From a virus (taxonomy: Duplodnaviria > Caudoviricetes), in IMG/VR virus record IMGVR_UViG_3300032233_001815, positions 1-28,056 of that record: a stretch of 28,056 nucleotides of DNA. One strand, given 5' to 3'. The translations under genes were made by a program, and so were the position numbers. Positions within the stretch are counted from its first letter, which is position 1. Every line of letters starts with the position of its first letter. The notes under the pieces were generated by a model. The model had not been told where the DNA came from, did no database searches, and worked only from the letters and a program-made list of their open reading frames with translations. Below are positions 1,909 through 24,540 of the stretch, in pieces.

Positions 1909-2264
1909 TGGCCAGACCCAAGAAGCAGATCGACCCGAAAATAGTGCAGGATCTCGCGGCCCTTGGCTGCAAGACCAATGAGATCGCAGTCACCCTTGGC
2001 TGTTCCACCGATACTCTCGAGCGGCGTTTTGCGGCAGAACTTTCAAAAGGACGAGAGAACCTGAGGATCTCGCTCAGGAGATGGCAGCTCGAGGCGGCAA
2101 AGAAGGGCAACGTCGCCATGCTGATCTGGCTTGGCAAGCAGATGCTAGGCCAGACGGAGAAGGTCGAACAGACGAGCGAGGTCAAGGCCCACGTCGAGGC
2201 GATTGAGTACGTCGCAAGCTGGGGTGGCACCAGCGAGCCCACGGGCCCGGGGCATGAAGGCTAG
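1908..2264 (+). CDS. terS: Terminase small subunit
   Basis: MARPKKQID...HTH-like segment...KGNVAMLIWLGKQMLGQ motif; TGATG coupling to the MTase; directly upstream of TerL. Confidence 0.85.
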   Translation: MARPKKQIDPKIVQDLAALGCKTNEIAVTLGCSTDTLERRFAAELSKGRENLRISLRRWQLEAAKKGNVAMLIWLGKQMLGQTEKVEQTSEVKAHVEAIEYVASWGGTSEPTGPGHEG

Positions 2265-3570
2265 GCTTAGGCTTTACAACCCGCATCGGAAGCAACTGGA
2301 GTTTCACTCGAACCCAGCCCGCTATCGGGTGGCCTCATGGGGACGTCAGAGCGGGAAGTCTACGGCTTGCCTGAACGAGCTAGTACGAAGGGCATGGGAG
2401 AACCCGGGGACCAAGTACTGGTTCGTGAGCCCGACTTATCCTCAGGCCCGAATTCAGTATCGCCGGCTTGTAGGGATGCTCTGGTCCTGCCCCGAGGTCG
2501 TGCTCAAGAAGAACCAGACGGAGCTTCGGGTCAAGCTCGCGAACAATTCGGAAATCAGTTTCAGGTCGGGGGAGAATTTCGATAACCTCCGCGGGGAAAC
2601 CCTGCACGGGGTCGTGGTGGATGAGGTGCGCGACCAGCACCCGGAGCTATGGCCTCAAGTTCTCCGCCCCATGCTTACGACCACGAAGGGATGGGCGGCC
2701 TTCGTTTCTACGCCTTCGGGCTTCGATCAGTTCTTTGATCTCGCGGAGCGGGCCAAGTTCGATTCGGACTGGTCGTTTATGTCTGCTCCGTCGACCTGTA
2801 ACCCGTTGTTCACCTATGAGGAGTACGAAGCGGCCAAGCGTGAGCTATCCGAGGCCGAGTTTGCTCAGGAGATCAACGCCGAGTTCCGGGATCTCCACTC
2901 GGGCTCGGTCTACATATGTTACTCGGACGCCAACCTTAGGAACGACACGCCGTTCTCCCGGGAACCCGGTAAACTTTACACGCCTCACCTCCCGATCGTC
3001 ATTGGCCTCGACTTCAACCTCTCGCCCATGGCTTGGGTTCTCGGGCAGGAGCGTTCTGGGGACTTCTACTTCTTTGACGAACTTTTCCTGAAGAAGTCAC
3101 ACACGCAGGAAGCGGCCCTAGAGTTAATCCAAAGGCTCAAACGCTTCGAGGTGTCCCTACCTACCCAAGTGATCCTGATCGGCGACGCCACGGGCAAGGC
3201 AGGGCAGCGTGCGGCCGCGGGGAAGTCCGACTATGCGATCCTGACCGAGATGCTGACCCATGCCGGCATCCGTTGGGAGAACCGAACCCCTGAGGCCAAT
3301 CCCCAAGTCCGGGACCGAATCAACGTAGTCAACGCAAAGCTCAAGAGCGCGACCGGAACGCAGCACCTATGGCTGAACCCCCAGACCTGCCCGAACCTCA
3401 AGCGCGACCTTCAGCGCGTCGTCTGGAAGCAGGGGGCGACCTTTACGCTCGATCAGGGCACGAACCCCGACCTGACCCATATCTCCGACGCGATGGGTTA
3501 CGCCGTCCACGGGATGAGCCGAATGTGGGAACCTTCGGCTGGAGGACTCCGTGTCATTCGCAGACAATAG
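2254..3570 (+). CDS. terL: Terminase large subunit
   Basis: Walker A WGRQSGKS, LRG, Walker B VVVDE, motif III STP, nuclease IGLDFN...HISDAMGY. Start placed at ATG 2254, overlapping the TerS end. Confidence 0.96.
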   Translation: MKARLRLYNPHRKQLEFHSNPARYRVASWGRQSGKSTACLNELVRRAWENPGTKYWFVSPTYPQARIQYRRLVGMLWSCPEVVLKKNQTELRVKLANNSEISFRSGENFDNLRGETLHGVVVDEVRDQHPELWPQVLRPMLTTTKGWAAFVSTPSGFDQFFDLAERAKFDSDWSFMSAPSTCNPLFTYEEYEAAKRELSEAEFAQEINAEFRDLHSGSVYICYSDANLRNDTPFSREPGKLYTPHLPIVIGLDFNLSPMAWVLGQERSGDFYFFDELFLKKSHTQEAALELIQRLKRFEVSLPTQVILIGDATGKAGQRAAAGKSDYAILTEMLTHAGIRWENRTPEANPQVRDRINVVNAKLKSATGTQHLWLNPQTCPNLKRDLQRVVWKQGATFTLDQGTNPDLTHISDAMGYAVHGMSRMWEPSAGGLRVIRRQ

Positions 3571-3574
3571 CCTT

Positions 3575-3660
3575 GGCCCCGTAGCTCAGTGGCAGAGCAC
3601 GGCGTATAGCAGGGACGCCTGCCGTCGTGGGCGCGGGGTTCGATTCCCCCCGGGGCCGCC
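3575..3660 (+). tRNA. tRNA-like element with non-canonical anticodon arm (no assignable isotype)
   Basis: Acceptor GGCCCCG/CGGGGCC, U8A9, D-arm GCTC-AGTGGCA-GAGC, T-arm GGGG-TTCGATT-CCCC. There are 34 nt between D and T arms instead of about 22, and it ends G-CC-T with no encoded CCA. Confidence 0.75.
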
Positions 3661-3718
3661 TTTTATTGTTCGGGTCGGTTGCGCTATCGTAGCAACTACT
3701 CTAGGTTTGGGGGACTCG

Positions 3719-4849
3719 ATGAAACGCAAGACACCTGCCCATCATGCTACCCGGTATCGCGCGTTCACTCACAACCGAGACTTGATGCTTGAGGCCCTTC
3801 ACATCAAGGCCCATCAAATGATTAACGACATTCTCCGGGGCTGCTTCACGCACGTCATCGAGCGGATCGTTTTTCGCTACACCATGGCCCCGCCTCAGTC
3901 GATGCTTGCCGACCCAACCCGTTTCGCAAGTCTTGTCGACAACGACATTGCTCAGGAGTTTCTCCGCGCATCTAGAGAGGTGGCGGCCGTTCTTGCGAGG
4001 CTAAAGATTCATGCTTATACCGTGGCCTTGGTGGGCGAGGCTGAGGCGATCGGTCGAGCCGAAGATCAGGCAACCCTCTATTCGGTAGACCGAAAGGATA
4101 TAGAAGAAAACGCCTTGTACGACTACGACGGCAAGCCGATCACCACGCGCATCGACTTCGCCTTCGACAAGCTACGGCGTAAAATCCTCAACGCGGTGCA
4201 GCTATCCCGAATCAACGAGGACTCTACAAAGGACATGATCGAGCGCGTCCAGAGGGCCCTTCCTCCAAACCGTGCGGTGAAGCGTCCAGCGAAGATCCTA
4301 AAGGGCCTCAGAGAAGCGCGCGTCATGTCCAATGGTCAGGAGATGACGATCCTCAACATCGGGGACAAAGACCCGGACACCGTCAACCTTTCTACGGGCT
4401 TCATGGATGAGGACCTTTGGTCCGAGATCATCGAGGAATACACCAAGGACTACGTCCCATACTACCGCGAGCCAAAGATCGTCGAGGACGTGCCGGTGGG
4501 CGGCCTTATCGAAGAATGGTATGGTTGGGAAATTGAGCAGTACATCACGCACGAGTTCGTGACGCAGGTGCGCGCGGGACAGAACGAGGCCGCGAGGCAA
4601 AACGGAATCAAGGACTTCATGTGGATCGCCATCATCGACGACAAAACGGACGAGTGCTGCGCGTGGCGAGATGGCTTGACCTCTGCGCAGATTGAGGCGA
4701 AATTGAAGCAGCACAAGGACGAGGATTGTGACGTGATCGTTCCGCCAGCGCATTTTAATTGTCGCTGCACGATGGCCCCAATGCTCAACACCATGACCGA
4801 CGAGCCGGTCAGCAACGTGACGGAGTTTGAAGAATGGCTGAACAGCTAG
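3719..4849 (+). CDS. Head morphogenesis protein, SPP1 gp7/Mu gpF family
   Basis: C-terminal WIAIIDDKTDECCAWRDG...PPAHFNCRC signature. Start moved to ATG 3719 (GGGGGA RBS) because the longer ORF runs through the tRNA-like element. Confidence 0.85.
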   Translation: MKRKTPAHHATRYRAFTHNRDLMLEALHIKAHQMINDILRGCFTHVIERIVFRYTMAPPQSMLADPTRFASLVDNDIAQEFLRASREVAAVLARLKIHAYTVALVGEAEAIGRAEDQATLYSVDRKDIEENALYDYDGKPITTRIDFAFDKLRRKILNAVQLSRINEDSTKDMIERVQRALPPNRAVKRPAKILKGLREARVMSNGQEMTILNIGDKDPDTVNLSTGFMDEDLWSEIIEEYTKDYVPYYREPKIVEDVPVGGLIEEWYGWEIEQYITHEFVTQVRAGQNEAARQNGIKDFMWIAIIDDKTDECCAWRDGLTSAQIEAKLKQHKDEDCDVIVPPAHFNCRCTMAPMLNTMTDEPVSNVTEFEEWLNS

Positions 4850-6522: not shown

Positions 6523-6886
6523 GCTCGCGAAACTGAAGGAACTCGACGCCCAATATCTGTTCGACAACCCGCAAGAGTTCGGGCTTCCGACCTTCGACGA
6601 GTTCCGCCGCAACCCCGAGAAGTACATCGGCCGCGACGACGAGCGGCTGGAGGAAGTGGACCGCGGCGGCGAGCATATCCGGAGCGTAGTCCAGCGGCAC
6701 ATCTATGAGATCGAGGGATACCGCTGCAAGACCCTCGAAGAAGTTGAACGCATCGCGTCAAGTCAGGGTATCCCGCTCAGGGAACTAGACTATCGGCCCG
6801 AGGTAGTTCCCTCTTCCGCGGGGAAGTGCGATCTTTTGGTAAGGTTCGTCAACAAGAATACGCGCGCACGCCGGGACGCATGGTGA
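6515..6886 (+). CDS. Hypothetical head-module protein (123 aa)
   Basis: AAGGA RBS, overlaps both neighbours, phage-typical codon use; no recognised motif. Confidence 0.75.
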   Translation: MSKLAKLKELDAQYLFDNPQEFGLPTFDEFRRNPEKYIGRDDERLEEVDRGGEHIRSVVQRHIYEIEGYRCKTLEEVERIASSQGIPLRELDYRPEVVPSSAGKCDLLVRFVNKNTRARRDAW

Positions 6887-8892
6887 AGAAAAAGAAACCT
6901 CAGGCCATCAAAGAGGCCGAGCCAGCTTTGAATAAACCCTTTCGGACTCCCGATGGTCCGAAGAAGTTCGCCGTGTATGTGAAAGATCCGAGCAGCGGGA
7001 ATCGCAAGAAGGTCACTTTCGGCGATCCCGGCATGAGCATCAAGCGTGACGATCCAGAAGCGCGTAAAAATTTCAGGGCTCGCCATGGATGCGATGACCC
7101 GGGGCCAAAGACCAAAGCGAAATACTGGTCATGCAAAATGTGGAGCACTAAGCCGGTGAGCAAGATTACGAAAGAAGCGGGCCCTAAAGATCAGCCCGGG
7201 ATTCGTCAAAAGTTTTGGTTCTATGGCTGCGAGGCGTTTAGCCCGAGTGTTCAGCCTCCGACCTCAAGCGGAAAGGCCCCAGAAGAACAACCACAACCAG
7301 CAAAACACGAGCCGTCGGTAGACGAGGAAATCGCCCGTATGCTGATCGACAACCCCGGGATCACCGGGGCAACGATGGTCAACCTTTTGAGGGCGAAGGG
7401 TTTTAAGATCGTTGACGACAAGCAGATCGAGGCCGACGGTCTGTCGACCGCCCTTCCCGTGACCCGCGCAGAACCTAAGGAAGCTGGGGCCATTCTGGAC
7501 GGTTTCATCAACGCCCGCTTTCTTGAGTCCGCTCGCGACAACGGCGTGGGCCCGGTTCGATTCAAGGTCGCCCTGATTCAAGAGGGTCTCGGCAATCTTC
7601 GGGACGCTTTCTACTATACCCGCGAGGCAATCGAGTCCGGCGTCTTGGCCTTCGAGGGTAAGAAGTGCTACGCCGACCATCCATCCCGCTCTGAGGAGTC
7701 CGACCGCCCGGAGCGTTCGGTTCGCGATATCATCGGGCACTTCGAGAACCTGCACGTTGAGGAGGGCGATCAGGGTCAGGCCATGCTTTGCGCTGACCTC
7801 GTCATGCTTCCCGACCCCCCCTTCGAGTGGGCCCGATCGCTCGTGCGCCATTCCATCGGATACAGCTCGACGCATCACGACAAGGAGTTCGTCGGTCTGT
7901 CGATTAACGCAGCCGGCGACGCTGAAGCAATGTCGGCCGATCAGTTCGTCAAAGAAGCGAAGATTCCAGACGGGGCCTTGCCAAAGATCAAGCAAGCAAT
8001 GCAAGATGGCCTCACACAGATTCGCGTCGTCTCTGCCATTAAGGACGCCGTGTCAACCGACCTCGTCACCGAGCCGGGGGCTCGCGGAAAGGTCCTAGAA
8101 ATCCTAGAAAGGGAACAGCCCATGTCGAAGAAAAAGATCGCCCTTTTTGCCGAGGACGAGAAGAAGCTCCCGGCGAAGCAGGAAGAAGCGAAGCAGGAAG
8201 AATCTAAGCAGTCCGAACAGGAAGGCGAGGAAAAGAAAGAAGAAGAAAAGCCCGAAGGTGAAGAAGATCACGAGGACGTCGAGCAGGACAAGGCTCTGAT
8301 CCTCGACATGATCAAGAAGCACATGGGCGAAGCATCCGAAGGTATGGAAGCCGAGGGTGAAGAAGCAGCGCACCAAGCCTACGAAGCCTACAAGGAAATG
8401 GGCAAGGGCCACGAAGAGGCCATGAAGTGCGCCGCCGAAGCCATGAAGCTCGCAAAGCACATGAGCGCAAAGCAGACCGAAGCCGAGAAGCGCGAGACCG
8501 ACGAGGCCGCTCATCCCGCTGGCCCCGCTGAAAGCGAGAAGAAGGAATCCGAAGGCGAAGAAAAGGCCAAGGAGTCTGACGTCGTTCGCCTGACCGCCAA
8601 GGTCGCCATGCTGGAGCGTGAACTCAAGAAGCGCGAGCTGGTCGAGTTCCTCGACAAGAAGCTCCGCGAGTCCGGCCTTGGCCGCGCCGAAACCGACAAG
8701 TTGCGTTCGCTTATCGGCGAACCCAAGTCGGAAGGCGACGTGGAAAACACTATCAAGATTTTCAAGGAAGCGTTCACGCTGCGCGGAGGTGAGTCCAAAG
8801 CTGCGTCGATTTTCGTAACTTCCGTGGAAAAACAGGCACCCGTTGAAAAGTCCACCGTCAAGGTGAACTTCGGCGAGTGTTTGAAGAAGTAA
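6880..8892 (+). CDS. Prohead maturation protease-scaffold fusion with extra N-terminal domains
   Basis: Central CYADHP...VGLSINA...STDLVTEPGARG (His/Ser/Asp pattern of capsid maturation proteases) and an E/K-rich coiled-coil C-terminus; lies between portal and capsid. Start placed at ATG 6880. Confidence 0.8.
   Translation: MVKKKKPQAIKEAEPALNKPFRTPDGPKKFAVYVKDPSSGNRKKVTFGDPGMSIKRDDPEARKNFRARHGCDDPGPKTKAKYWSCKMWSTKPVSKITKEAGPKDQPGIRQKFWFYGCEAFSPSVQPPTSSGKAPEEQPQPAKHEPSVDEEIARMLIDNPGITGATMVNLLRAKGFKIVDDKQIEADGLSTALPVTRAEPKEAGAILDGFINARFLESARDNGVGPVRFKVALIQEGLGNLRDAFYYTREAIESGVLAFEGKKCYADHPSRSEESDRPERSVRDIIGHFENLHVEEGDQGQAMLCADLVMLPDPPFEWARSLVRHSIGYSSTHHDKEFVGLSINAAGDAEAMSADQFVKEAKIPDGALPKIKQAMQDGLTQIRVVSAIKDAVSTDLVTEPGARGKVLEILEREQPMSKKKIALFAEDEKKLPAKQEEAKQEESKQSEQEGEEKKEEEKPEGEEDHEDVEQDKALILDMIKKHMGEASEGMEAEGEEAAHQAYEAYKEMGKGHEEAMKCAAEAMKLAKHMSAKQTEAEKRETDEAAHPAGPAESEKKESEGEEKAKESDVVRLTAKVAMLERELKKRELVEFLDKKLRESGLGRAETDKLRSLIGEPKSEGDVENTIKIFKEAFTLRGGESKAASIFVTSVEKQAPVEKSTVKVNFGECLKK
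8122..8892 (+). CDS. Putative nested in-frame scaffold protein (internal start)
   Basis: GAAAGGGA-N7-ATG at the protease/scaffold boundary; the same RBS precedes the major capsid gene; analogous to lambda C/Nu3 and Mu I/Z. Confidence 0.6.
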   Translation: MSKKKIALFAEDEKKLPAKQEEAKQEESKQSEQEGEEKKEEEKPEGEEDHEDVEQDKALILDMIKKHMGEASEGMEAEGEEAAHQAYEAYKEMGKGHEEAMKCAAEAMKLAKHMSAKQTEAEKRETDEAAHPAGPAESEKKESEGEEKAKESDVVRLTAKVAMLERELKKRELVEFLDKKLRESGLGRAETDKLRSLIGEPKSEGDVENTIKIFKEAFTLRGGESKAASIFVTSVEKQAPVEKSTVKVNFGECLKK

Positions 8893-24094: not shown

Positions 24095-24341
24095 GGGATT
24101 CGTCCTCGGGCTGATCTCTGGCCTCATGACCGGGCTCGCCTCATGCGGGCACGCGGGATTGAAGGCGAAGGTCTACTATCTCGACGCGGCGCAGGGCGGA
24201 TTGGTTCGGCAGCAATCAAGCGAGGTCATCCCGTTTGATCAAGCGACGGGCTATCGCTGCATGAGCCCCGCGGACTTCGATGCGGCCCTGACGCTGCTTC
24301 GGAGTTGCCTTGAGCAAAAGGGGGTCGATCTTGGCCCGTGA
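24072..24341 (+). CDS. Lipoprotein, putative outer-membrane spanin
   Basis: Signal peptide with lipobox LAS-C, two further Cys residues, overlapped with the preceding membrane protein gene. Confidence 0.65.
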   Translation: MKMFSASRGFVLGLISGLMTGLASCGHAGLKAKVYYLDAAQGGLVRQQSSEVIPFDQATGYRCMSPADFDAALTLLRSCLEQKGVDLGP

Positions 24342-24540
24342 CCTCAAGGATCGAGACATAGAATACCTCATGCAACTCATCGTCATGGTTGCTGGCCTCG
24401 TGGCCGGCGTATCGGTTTGGGCATACTCGACCTTTGAGACCGAGGAGCACGCCGAGCAACAGAAGACCACGATCGAGCGGCGTCTGGAGCGAATTGAAAA
24501 CAAGGTTGACGAGCTGCTTCGCCGCTCTAGTGGCCCGTGA
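24331..24540 (+). CDS. Single-TM coiled-coil protein (holin/XhlA-like)
   Basis: TM segment LIVMVAGLVAGVSVWAY then IERRLERIENKVDELL. Start uncertain (TTG 24310, TTG 24331 or ATG 24370). Confidence 0.55.
   Translation: MARDLKDRDIEYLMQLIVMVAGLVAGVSVWAYSTFETEEHAEQQKTTIERRLERIENKVDELLRRSSGP

Follow-up and report, generated by a model that had tools for sequence, protein, structure and literature searches.

Several phages encode stable RNAs that look like tRNA and do not act as one: species 1 and 2 of phage T4 (rnaC and rnaD), RNA1-3 of phage T5, and the TLD-only tmRNA of mycobacteriophage DS6A. They resemble the RNA considered here in being phage-encoded, in having tRNA-shaped ends, in not decoding, and in having a role that is still open. 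They are unlike it, and set apart by their descriptions, in that they lie within tRNA clusters or lack a D or anticodon arm. Such look-alikes were described long ago with no function assigned to them, and they receive wrong labels from annotation tools.

The DNA analysed here (the window) is the whole 28,056-nucleotide stretch of a Caudoviricetes record, IMGVR_UViG_3300032233_001815. Its + strand carries terS-like, terL, MuF, portal, capsid, and tail genes and, between terL and MuF, a gene for an RNA of the general kind just described.

A tRNA-shaped gene between terL and MuF

Four nt separate the gene from the terL stop (3570), and 57 nt lie between its end and the MuF start (3719). Rfam finds only RF00005 (tRNA) for it, at 3575-3658, with 39.5 bits against a gathering score of 29, and in the alignment 18 bases take the place of the model's 7-nt loop. 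This is the sole tRNA match in the record, and Rfam classes the entire family as tRNA only. A preliminary description of the window, made from its letters, had seen near-canonical acceptor, D, and T arms at this place; the Rfam score and the covariation of the stems bear this out. The parts of the gene and its neighbours are as follows (percentages and pair counts refer to the alignment described below).

2203..3570, + strand: terminase large subunit gene, terL (PF03237, phrog_2)
3575..3661, + strand: tRNA-shaped non-decoding RNA gene; G73 at 3658, then CCT instead of CCA
3575-3581 / 3651-3657, + strand: acceptor stem, 7 bp; 93.8% of cells paired, two-sided change in 7/7 pairs
3584..3598, + strand: D arm with a 4-bp stem; G18-G19 retained, Levitt pair (15 with 48) covarying
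3600-3604 / 3623-3627, + strand: stem at the anticodon position, 5 bp; 93.3% paired, two-sided change in 5/5 pairs
3605..3608, + strand: 5' bulge, 4 nt; consensus AAUA, second base A in 20/21 and never U
3609-3613 / 3618-3622, + strand: apical hairpin, 5 bp; 91.7% paired, two-sided change in 4/5 pairs
3610..3617, + strand: CANGGANG match of the preliminary description; its A, N, and first G predicted paired
3614..3617, + strand: GACG tetraloop, the conserved tip; in 24/28 RNAs of both groups, with three kinds of closing pair
3633..3650, + strand: T arm with canonical loop, C3634 bulged
3661..3669, + strand: U-rich tract after the 3' end, like that of a tRNA precursor; putative processing role
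3719..4849, + strand: MuF-like head morphogenesis gene (PF04233)

Similar U-rich tracts follow the RNA in many homologues. The possibility that the RNA is a coding extension of MuF was rejected, as the frame, open in the window and three other loci, is interrupted by stops in 15/18 homologous loci. Just 3' of the RNA, before MuF, there is often a reading frame that is hydrophobic and short, about 20-30 codons as judged by eye, for instance in L007, L130, L131, L132, L134, L136, and L556. In the head region, a 688-aa frame (window 6826-8892) is split in two in four of nine relatives (G001, G006, G007, and G010).

Homologues and fold

Homologous loci were gathered through terL alone, blind to the RNA, and the DNA past the terL stop was then read. 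Among loci with enough downstream DNA, duplicates included, the RNA is present in 24/27 whose terL is at least 58% identical, in 1/29 at 50-58%, and in 0/28 at 40-50%. The comparison used 21 distinct RNAs of this family (family A), each between terL and MuF and each starting 2-42 nt beyond the terL stop. In a quick tree of terL, built without partial rows such as L134 and L180, 19 of the 21 rows of one clade (SH-aLRT 99) have the RNA, which has been lost in L150 and L166; the copy in L162, which lies outside this clade, is divergent. Searching 100 + 86 sources with a covariance model gave no further copies next to terL. The metagenome scan covered 20 of 64 parts and met mostly distant terL, and one homologue-pattern search gave 122 matches, 101 of which were dropped as having no T loop. 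BLAST of 3400-3800 against named phages matched nothing. In all four near-complete family-A records, the RNA is the sole tRNA-like match; it is absent from all five complete relatives with the same head module, none of which has any tRNA at all. In a 50% relative, another tRNA-like gene with an extended arm precedes terL by about 1.2 kb (L203:1236-1318); it has neither GACG nor GGA. Judged from these homologues, the tRNA-shaped RNA of the window is no product of chance, and phages conserve its gene.

A plain MAFFT alignment of the 21 RNAs (median identity 59%; 17 clusters at 85%) supports a single fold: 94.9% of 532 cells are paired and 24 of 26 pairs show two-sided changes, values reached by none of 500 shuffles. 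Controls in which the partners were slid gave 41-51%, and RNAalifold returned the same fold from the alignment unprompted. The folding of the single sequence is no better than that of its shuffles (z-score -0.15), so the support for the fold is comparative, not thermodynamic. What stands in the place of the anticodon arm is a 5-bp stem, a 4-nt bulge, and a 5-bp hairpin capped by GACG. The pairs around the bulge are kept in sequence (C-G in 17, G-C in 17, then G-C in 14 of 21) while neighbouring pairs vary freely, and two bases of the bulge are A in 16/21 and 20/21.

The preliminary description was right that the window RNA offers no 7-nt anticodon loop. The two arms that it drew fare poorly: with acceptor, D, and T stems fixed, they give -32.5 and -34.3 kcal/mol against -41.3 for the supported arm. 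The stem 3600-04/3620-24 with its 15-nt loop, some 9 kcal/mol worse, has 42.9% of cells paired (210/500 shuffles as high), and the alternative with a 9-nt loop has 44.7% (144/500). The C:C mismatch that it placed in the T stem is better drawn as G3633-C3650 with C3634 bulged, a bulge found in 6/21 RNAs.

A tRNA core without decoding

Family A keeps what tRNA needs for its shape and loses what it needs at the ribosome. G18, U54, C56, and A58 are invariant in the 21 RNAs, the D stem is 96.4% paired, the Levitt pair is present in 18/18 cells (G-C in 13, A-U in 5), and the 7/5 acceptor branch is retained. G73 is found in 16/21 and an encoded CCA in 11/21. U33, on the other hand, is found in none: position 33 is A in 20 RNAs and G in one, and the strands of the stem at the anticodon position are 14-20 nt apart. 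Across the family, the calls of ARAGORN range over Cys, Pro, Leu, Phe, Val, and His, with some RNAs of unknown type and some not called at all, and no anticodon is common to them; the window RNA, for which an undetermined or pseudo call had been foreseen, is called tRNA-Cys by a forced fit. Because of the covariation, the Levitt pair, the invariant bases, the missing U33, and the scattered anticodon calls, the tRNA core is evidently under selection, and the RNA evidently cannot read codons. The earlier idea of a non-decoding tRNA mimic thus gains from the comparison, given also the frequent encoded CCA and the fixed position. The gene almost certainly encodes a functional non-decoding RNA.

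A genuine tRNA, be it one that carries a short intron, one whose anticodon is non-standard, or one in decay, is suggested by the Rfam score and by the calls of ARAGORN, yet it is barely credible in view of the absent U33, the lack of a common anticodon, and compensatory changes inside the supposed insert. An intron of the bulge-helix-bulge type does not have its bulge solely 5' of the helix, as is the case here, and removal of the insert restores neither a loop with U33 nor a conserved anticodon; an intron-bearing tRNA was largely rejected on that account. Against these readings stand also related strains in two other assemblies, with 17 differences in the flanks and no difference in the RNA (p about 0.06, a hand estimate). 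A tmRNA and its TLD-only form lack a D stem and have G3-U70. Both identities were ruled out by the well-paired D stem and by G3-U70 in 0/21 RNAs.

The end of the molecule, CCA included, is probably uncharged. Charging would be unlikely because there is no G3-U70 and no long variable arm, and the systems that aminoacylate tRNAs with G73 need the anticodon or such an arm, as described in PMC9976931.

A second phage group

The pattern RGGACGCY placed before a T arm, a search biased to the loop, gave one further family-A RNA, at L556, and four others (L506, L507, L534, and L535). These four belong to 34-36-kb phages with an SU10-like capsid, unlike the Mu gpT-like capsid of family A, and their RNA lies a few bases past the gene following the capsid gene. 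A second scan, blind to the loop, looked for class-I D arms with a long middle; it covered 6 of 64 parts (about 1600 stretches, by estimate) and gave 113 distinct arms. Two of these, L435 and L466, are at the second group's site, so that the group has six RNAs.

L506:1466-1548, + strand: second-group RNA
L507:1483-1565, - strand: second-group RNA
L534:1483-1565, - strand: second-group RNA
L535:724-807, - strand: second-group RNA
L435:1486-1564, - strand: second-group RNA
L466:294-372, + strand: second-group RNA

L435 and L466 both have a GACG tip; the closing pair is U-A in one and C-G in the other, and neither loop contains GGA. Such a GACG loop is thus found in 2/2 at this site and in one of the other 111 arms (Fisher p 0.0005, a guide only, the two loci being relatives). 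Bulges in the second group are 1-3 nt long or are replaced by an internal loop, and GACG is retained. Position 73 is a pyrimidine in 6/6, and acceptor identity is hence not the feature kept; in 5/6 this base could pair with base -1. L506-type arms, those of L506, L507, L534, and L535, carry CAAGGACG. Lysis-like, phosphoesterase, terS-like, and tail genes are common to the second group and the family-A phages, and BLAST of the second-group RNA against named phages gave only partial matches to the T arm. Overall, the RNA is the sole tRNA-like gene in 6/7 near-complete records. As far as the compared RNAs tell, what is common to both groups is the tRNA core and GACG, neither an amino-acid identity nor a CsrA site.

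Other unusual tRNA bodies were met along the way. IMG/VR has many whose middle is long (L380-L498; about 1600 stretches, by estimate); the acceptor stem is intact in 104 of the 113 arms (13 class-II-like, 26 resembling intron-bearing Tyr/Lys/Ile tRNAs, 65 other). L398, near 1500 on the - strand, has a tRNA-like gene with a 7-bp GACG-capped hairpin at the position of the variable arm, in a phage with no protein in common with either RNA-bearing group. A CCA-ended tRNA-like gene at L016:1492-1564 has a shortened arm (4-bp stem, 5-nt loop); the same kind occurs in L021, L028, L053, L080, L087, L100, L103, L121, and L123, and in L016 and L021 it has further tRNA genes nearby.

Hints of a host

Named phages give terL at about 34% and weak capsid matches only, so no host emerges from them. 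Nine terL loci are in genome contigs, the best at 47% (Cytophagales in the title) and 45% (Bacteriovoracaceae in the title, a 38.7-kb contig), and neither of these has the RNA. Some genes of the second group match the same 38.7-kb contig, and the Bacteriovoracaceae-titled genome encodes CsrA. In its phylum, 3/401 genomes have a terL match at 1e-40, and a loose pattern for a chromosomal copy matched 49/401, 30 of which were inspected with no family member among them; those of the 30 that could be identified proved to be tmRNA or ordinary tRNAs, or looked like coding sequence. None of the sequencing runs is listed as holder of the RNA. The csrA of that genome adjoins a putative fliW. In 24 flagellin leaders of the genome and its relatives (L569-L598, L568), CANGGANG is enriched, 10 against 0.87 expected, in line with the control of flagellin by CsrA described for Campylobacter and Bacillus (PMC4894983). 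All of this amounts to a hint only of a Bacteriovoracaceae-type host.

The CsrA question

The preliminary description had supposed that the loop displays GGA and that the RNA may be a CsrA sponge. Such a sponge would titrate host CsrA through GGA, in the long-arm form once the top pairs have opened. The letters CAGGGACG are indeed present at 3610-3617, but A3611, G3612, and G3613 are predicted to be paired, with an unpaired probability of 0.00. High-affinity Csr/Rsm sites, as described in PMC4005645, are ANGGAX loops on a stem with an irreplaceable core, and occlusion of GGA causes the largest loss of affinity. Freeing the hexamer would cost 6.6 kcal/mol in the window RNA and 2.3-8.8 in the other long-arm RNAs. 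An open register is possible in 81% of family-A cells, yet with one two-sided change, and 243/500 shuffles score as high. It had been expected that CANGGANG would be conserved while the stems covary. The stems do, but the motif, which occurs 16 times on the + strand of the window and 5 times on the -, is in just 4/21 family-A RNAs, with A(N)GGA in 6/21 and GGA in 17/21. Over both groups, GGAYG is in 22/28 arms, A(N)GGA in 10/28, and CANGGANG in 8/28, four of these eight having come from the pattern biased to the loop. Three lineages (four RNAs) retain GACG and have lost the GGA of the loop: L137/L138, whose closing pair is flipped to C-G, L435, and L466. Outside the RNA, GC-closed CANGGAYG is about as frequent in the phage genomes as chance would give, none of nine phage records has a CsrA gene, and GGGACG is found 0 times in the flagellin leaders, whose wealth of CANGGANG would speak for the sponge if the hint of a host were right. 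With a single site per RNA besides, the sponge is quite improbable for the window copy.

Elsewhere in the family it may stand. In L131:3790-3914 and L136:1930-2056 the arm is shortened and ends in CANGGAUG as an open loop. Both have another CAAGGAUG upstream and, as a third site, an internal A(N)GGA, and their D loop has decayed; the shortening is a single event nested among long-arm forms. With three sites in or just before each RNA and a GC-closed ANGGAU loop that would cost 0.5-0.7 kcal/mol, these two are the best candidates for a CsrA sponge, and a role with CsrA is plausible there, the balance as read from the sequence being nearly even. Such a role is plausible also for the open CANGGANG loops of L506-type arms, whose two predicted folds, one with a CsrA hexaloop and one with a GACG loop, lie within 0.6 kcal/mol of each other. 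If CsrA does bind the short-arm forms, phages have RNA sponges of a global regulator.

The GACG tip and a possible decoy

A hairpin capped by GACG is found in 24 of the 28 RNAs, closed by G-C in 20, by C-G in three, and by U-A in one; it is absent from L129, L131, L136, and L162. The comparison thus isolates a selected element, four bases at a tip kept across two phage groups amid change, and the four RNAs without it are natural controls, which makes the question of function now testable. Kissing of GACG loops is said to have been first reported by Kim and Tinoco (2000). In gammaretroviral RNA, as described in PMC7357161 and PMC5874298, GACG loops stably homodimerise through two C-G pairs with their adenines stacked. 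One might therefore predict that the tip of one phage RNA pairs with that of a second copy to form a two-headed tRNA dimer, which would display two elbows and two CCA ends. Host enzymes that mature tRNA (RNase P and those of 3' processing) would likely release the RNA from the late transcript of the head genes; we infer this maturation, with CCA addition, from the features of the tRNA core and from the precedent of YrlA, as described in PMC4201824. The dimer would then likely be a stable decoy, tying up a host factor that binds or damages tRNA during head assembly. The gene, the fold, the intact tRNA core, the lost anticodon, the fixed position, and the conservation of GACG are what the aligned loci present; that the excised RNA pairs with itself by the tip and serves as a tRNA decoy is a tentative reading, held with somewhat less than even confidence.

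The gene is dispensable, as shown by its loss in two of the 21 rows of the terL clade and its absence from relatives with the same head module. A search for a partner gene found one real family present in 5/5 RNA-bearing and 0/5 other records, a small membrane protein. The family is in 9/10 RNA-bearing records of both groups (the tenth is a 10.5-kb fragment) and in 0/6 others below E 0.001; in the window, it is at 24310-24540, with one helix, among lysis-like genes. It may be a marker of the host group. To be dispensable, late, and tied to a gene pool is what one would expect of a counter-defence gene, and it suits a decoy aimed at some host factor binding the top half of tRNA. Defences of the sort exist: Cas12a3, as described in PMC12851939, cuts the CCA tails of diverse tRNAs. 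The preliminary description had also thought of a decoy for anticodon nucleases, which is weak as put, there being no anticodon loop to offer; factors that bind the elbow or CCA fit better. Weighing against the dimeric decoy are the four RNAs without GACG, the eight with full CANGGANG (open, with extra sites, in L131/L136), the failure to find a partner gene in the phages, and the chance that the link to the membrane protein is one of shared ancestry or gene pool only. Moreover, as described in PMC12445682, the phage tRNAs that were tried against P2-OLD rescue by replacing the lost tRNA, not as decoys. If the decoy is nonetheless true, phage tRNA genes have a non-decoding route against tRNA-directed immunity beside the route of replacement. 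A wider account would have phages make of a tRNA a self-dimerising device with the GACG kissing loop of gammaretroviruses. The device would have passed among unrelated head modules within one group of hosts, would at least once have been retuned as a CsrA sponge with several sites, and would act as a counter-defence or assembly RNA; this account is rather doubtful.

Alternatives to the dimer

The bias to G-C closing in 20/24 tips and the conserved bulge look like recognition by a protein, beyond what kissing alone would ask for. Perhaps, then, the RNA is a natural aptamer, in which bulge and GACG hairpin bind one protein other than CsrA, of host or phage, with no dimer, and the tRNA body provides merely stability and clean ends. 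The kept pairs flanking the bulge amid varying neighbours, and the adenines within it, are as such a reading would have them, and RNAs inserted in engineered tRNA scaffolds can build up in E. coli, although many chimeras fail to, as described in PMC4402540. The second group, however, has a different bulge with the same GACG, and no co-occurring RNA-binding gene was found, which leaves the aptamer unlikely.

The position of the RNA, always just past a stop codon in the head operon of both groups, invites two further readings. It may punctuate processing, an RNase P cut 2-42 nt past the terL stop parting terminase from the head-gene message, with the odd arm doing no more than shielding the released piece from ribosomes and anticodon nucleases. 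Neither a promoter-like nor a terminator-like site was seen within 3000-3900, and a tRNA-like module with a 7-bp acceptor stem, as described in PMC4201824, is cut by RNase P and gains CCA. But punctuation leaves the GACG of 24/28 RNAs unexplained, the site differs by group (past terL in one, past the gene following the capsid gene in the other), and relatives with the same genes do without the RNA, so that this reading is distinctly improbable. Or the RNA may serve head assembly or packaging, possibly in the virion, in the manner of the phi29 pRNA, which oligomerises through kissing loops as described in PMC7357161. Its place among terminase, MuF, portal, and capsid genes would suit such a role, but complete relatives with the same head genes lack it (5/5), two unlike capsid types have it in common, and one self-complementary loop would give dimers, not rings; a packaging role is very improbable.

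Comparison with known systems

The tip of the phage RNA is like the SL-C and SL-D kissing hairpins of gammaretroviruses, as described in PMC7357161, PMC5874298, and PMC516450, in having a GACG tetraloop with self-complementary CG on a stable stem. Those hairpins are in the genomic RNA leader of animal viruses and not on a tRNA body, and the likeness is one of motif only. With the Csr/Rsm sRNAs (CsrB, RsmZ), as described in PMC4005645, the family shares GGAYG in most arms, open CANGGANG in L131/L136, and one of the two L506-type folds; it is unlike them in its tRNA body, its single site, the paired first G, and the A missing from most. The Y RNA YrlA, found in bacteria and phages and described in PMC4201824, has its T arm before its D arm and is near Ro60. 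Identity with YrlA was ruled out: the window RNA has its arms in tRNA order, a TROVE (Ro60) gene is in none of five records, and the YrlA-type motif GNCGAAN0-1G is in 1/27 RNAs.

Similar in design is the engineered tRNA scaffold reportedly introduced by Ponchon and Dardel (2007), in which an RNA is inserted in the anticodon arm. It too is a tRNA body with a foreign hairpin replacing the anticodon loop; the phage RNA, by contrast, occurs in nature and has been selected for a single tip sequence. Irregular cloverleaves are also found among allo-tRNAs and E-loop tRNAs, some of which translation does not use, but as described in PMC5389517 they have 8/4 or 9/3 branches and anticodon loops, in contrast to the 7/5 branch of the phage RNA and its lack of any such loop. 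Among the papers listed by full-text searches, none dealt with this family or with a phage CsrA sponge; subscription papers and supplements lay outside that search, and large tables of candidate RNAs may include the family. The kind is already known from T4, T5, and DS6A. Compared with their RNAs, that of the window has a full cloverleaf core and a lengthened, bulged arm, and it is typically the sole tRNA-like gene of its phage; this architecture and its selected tip appear to be new.
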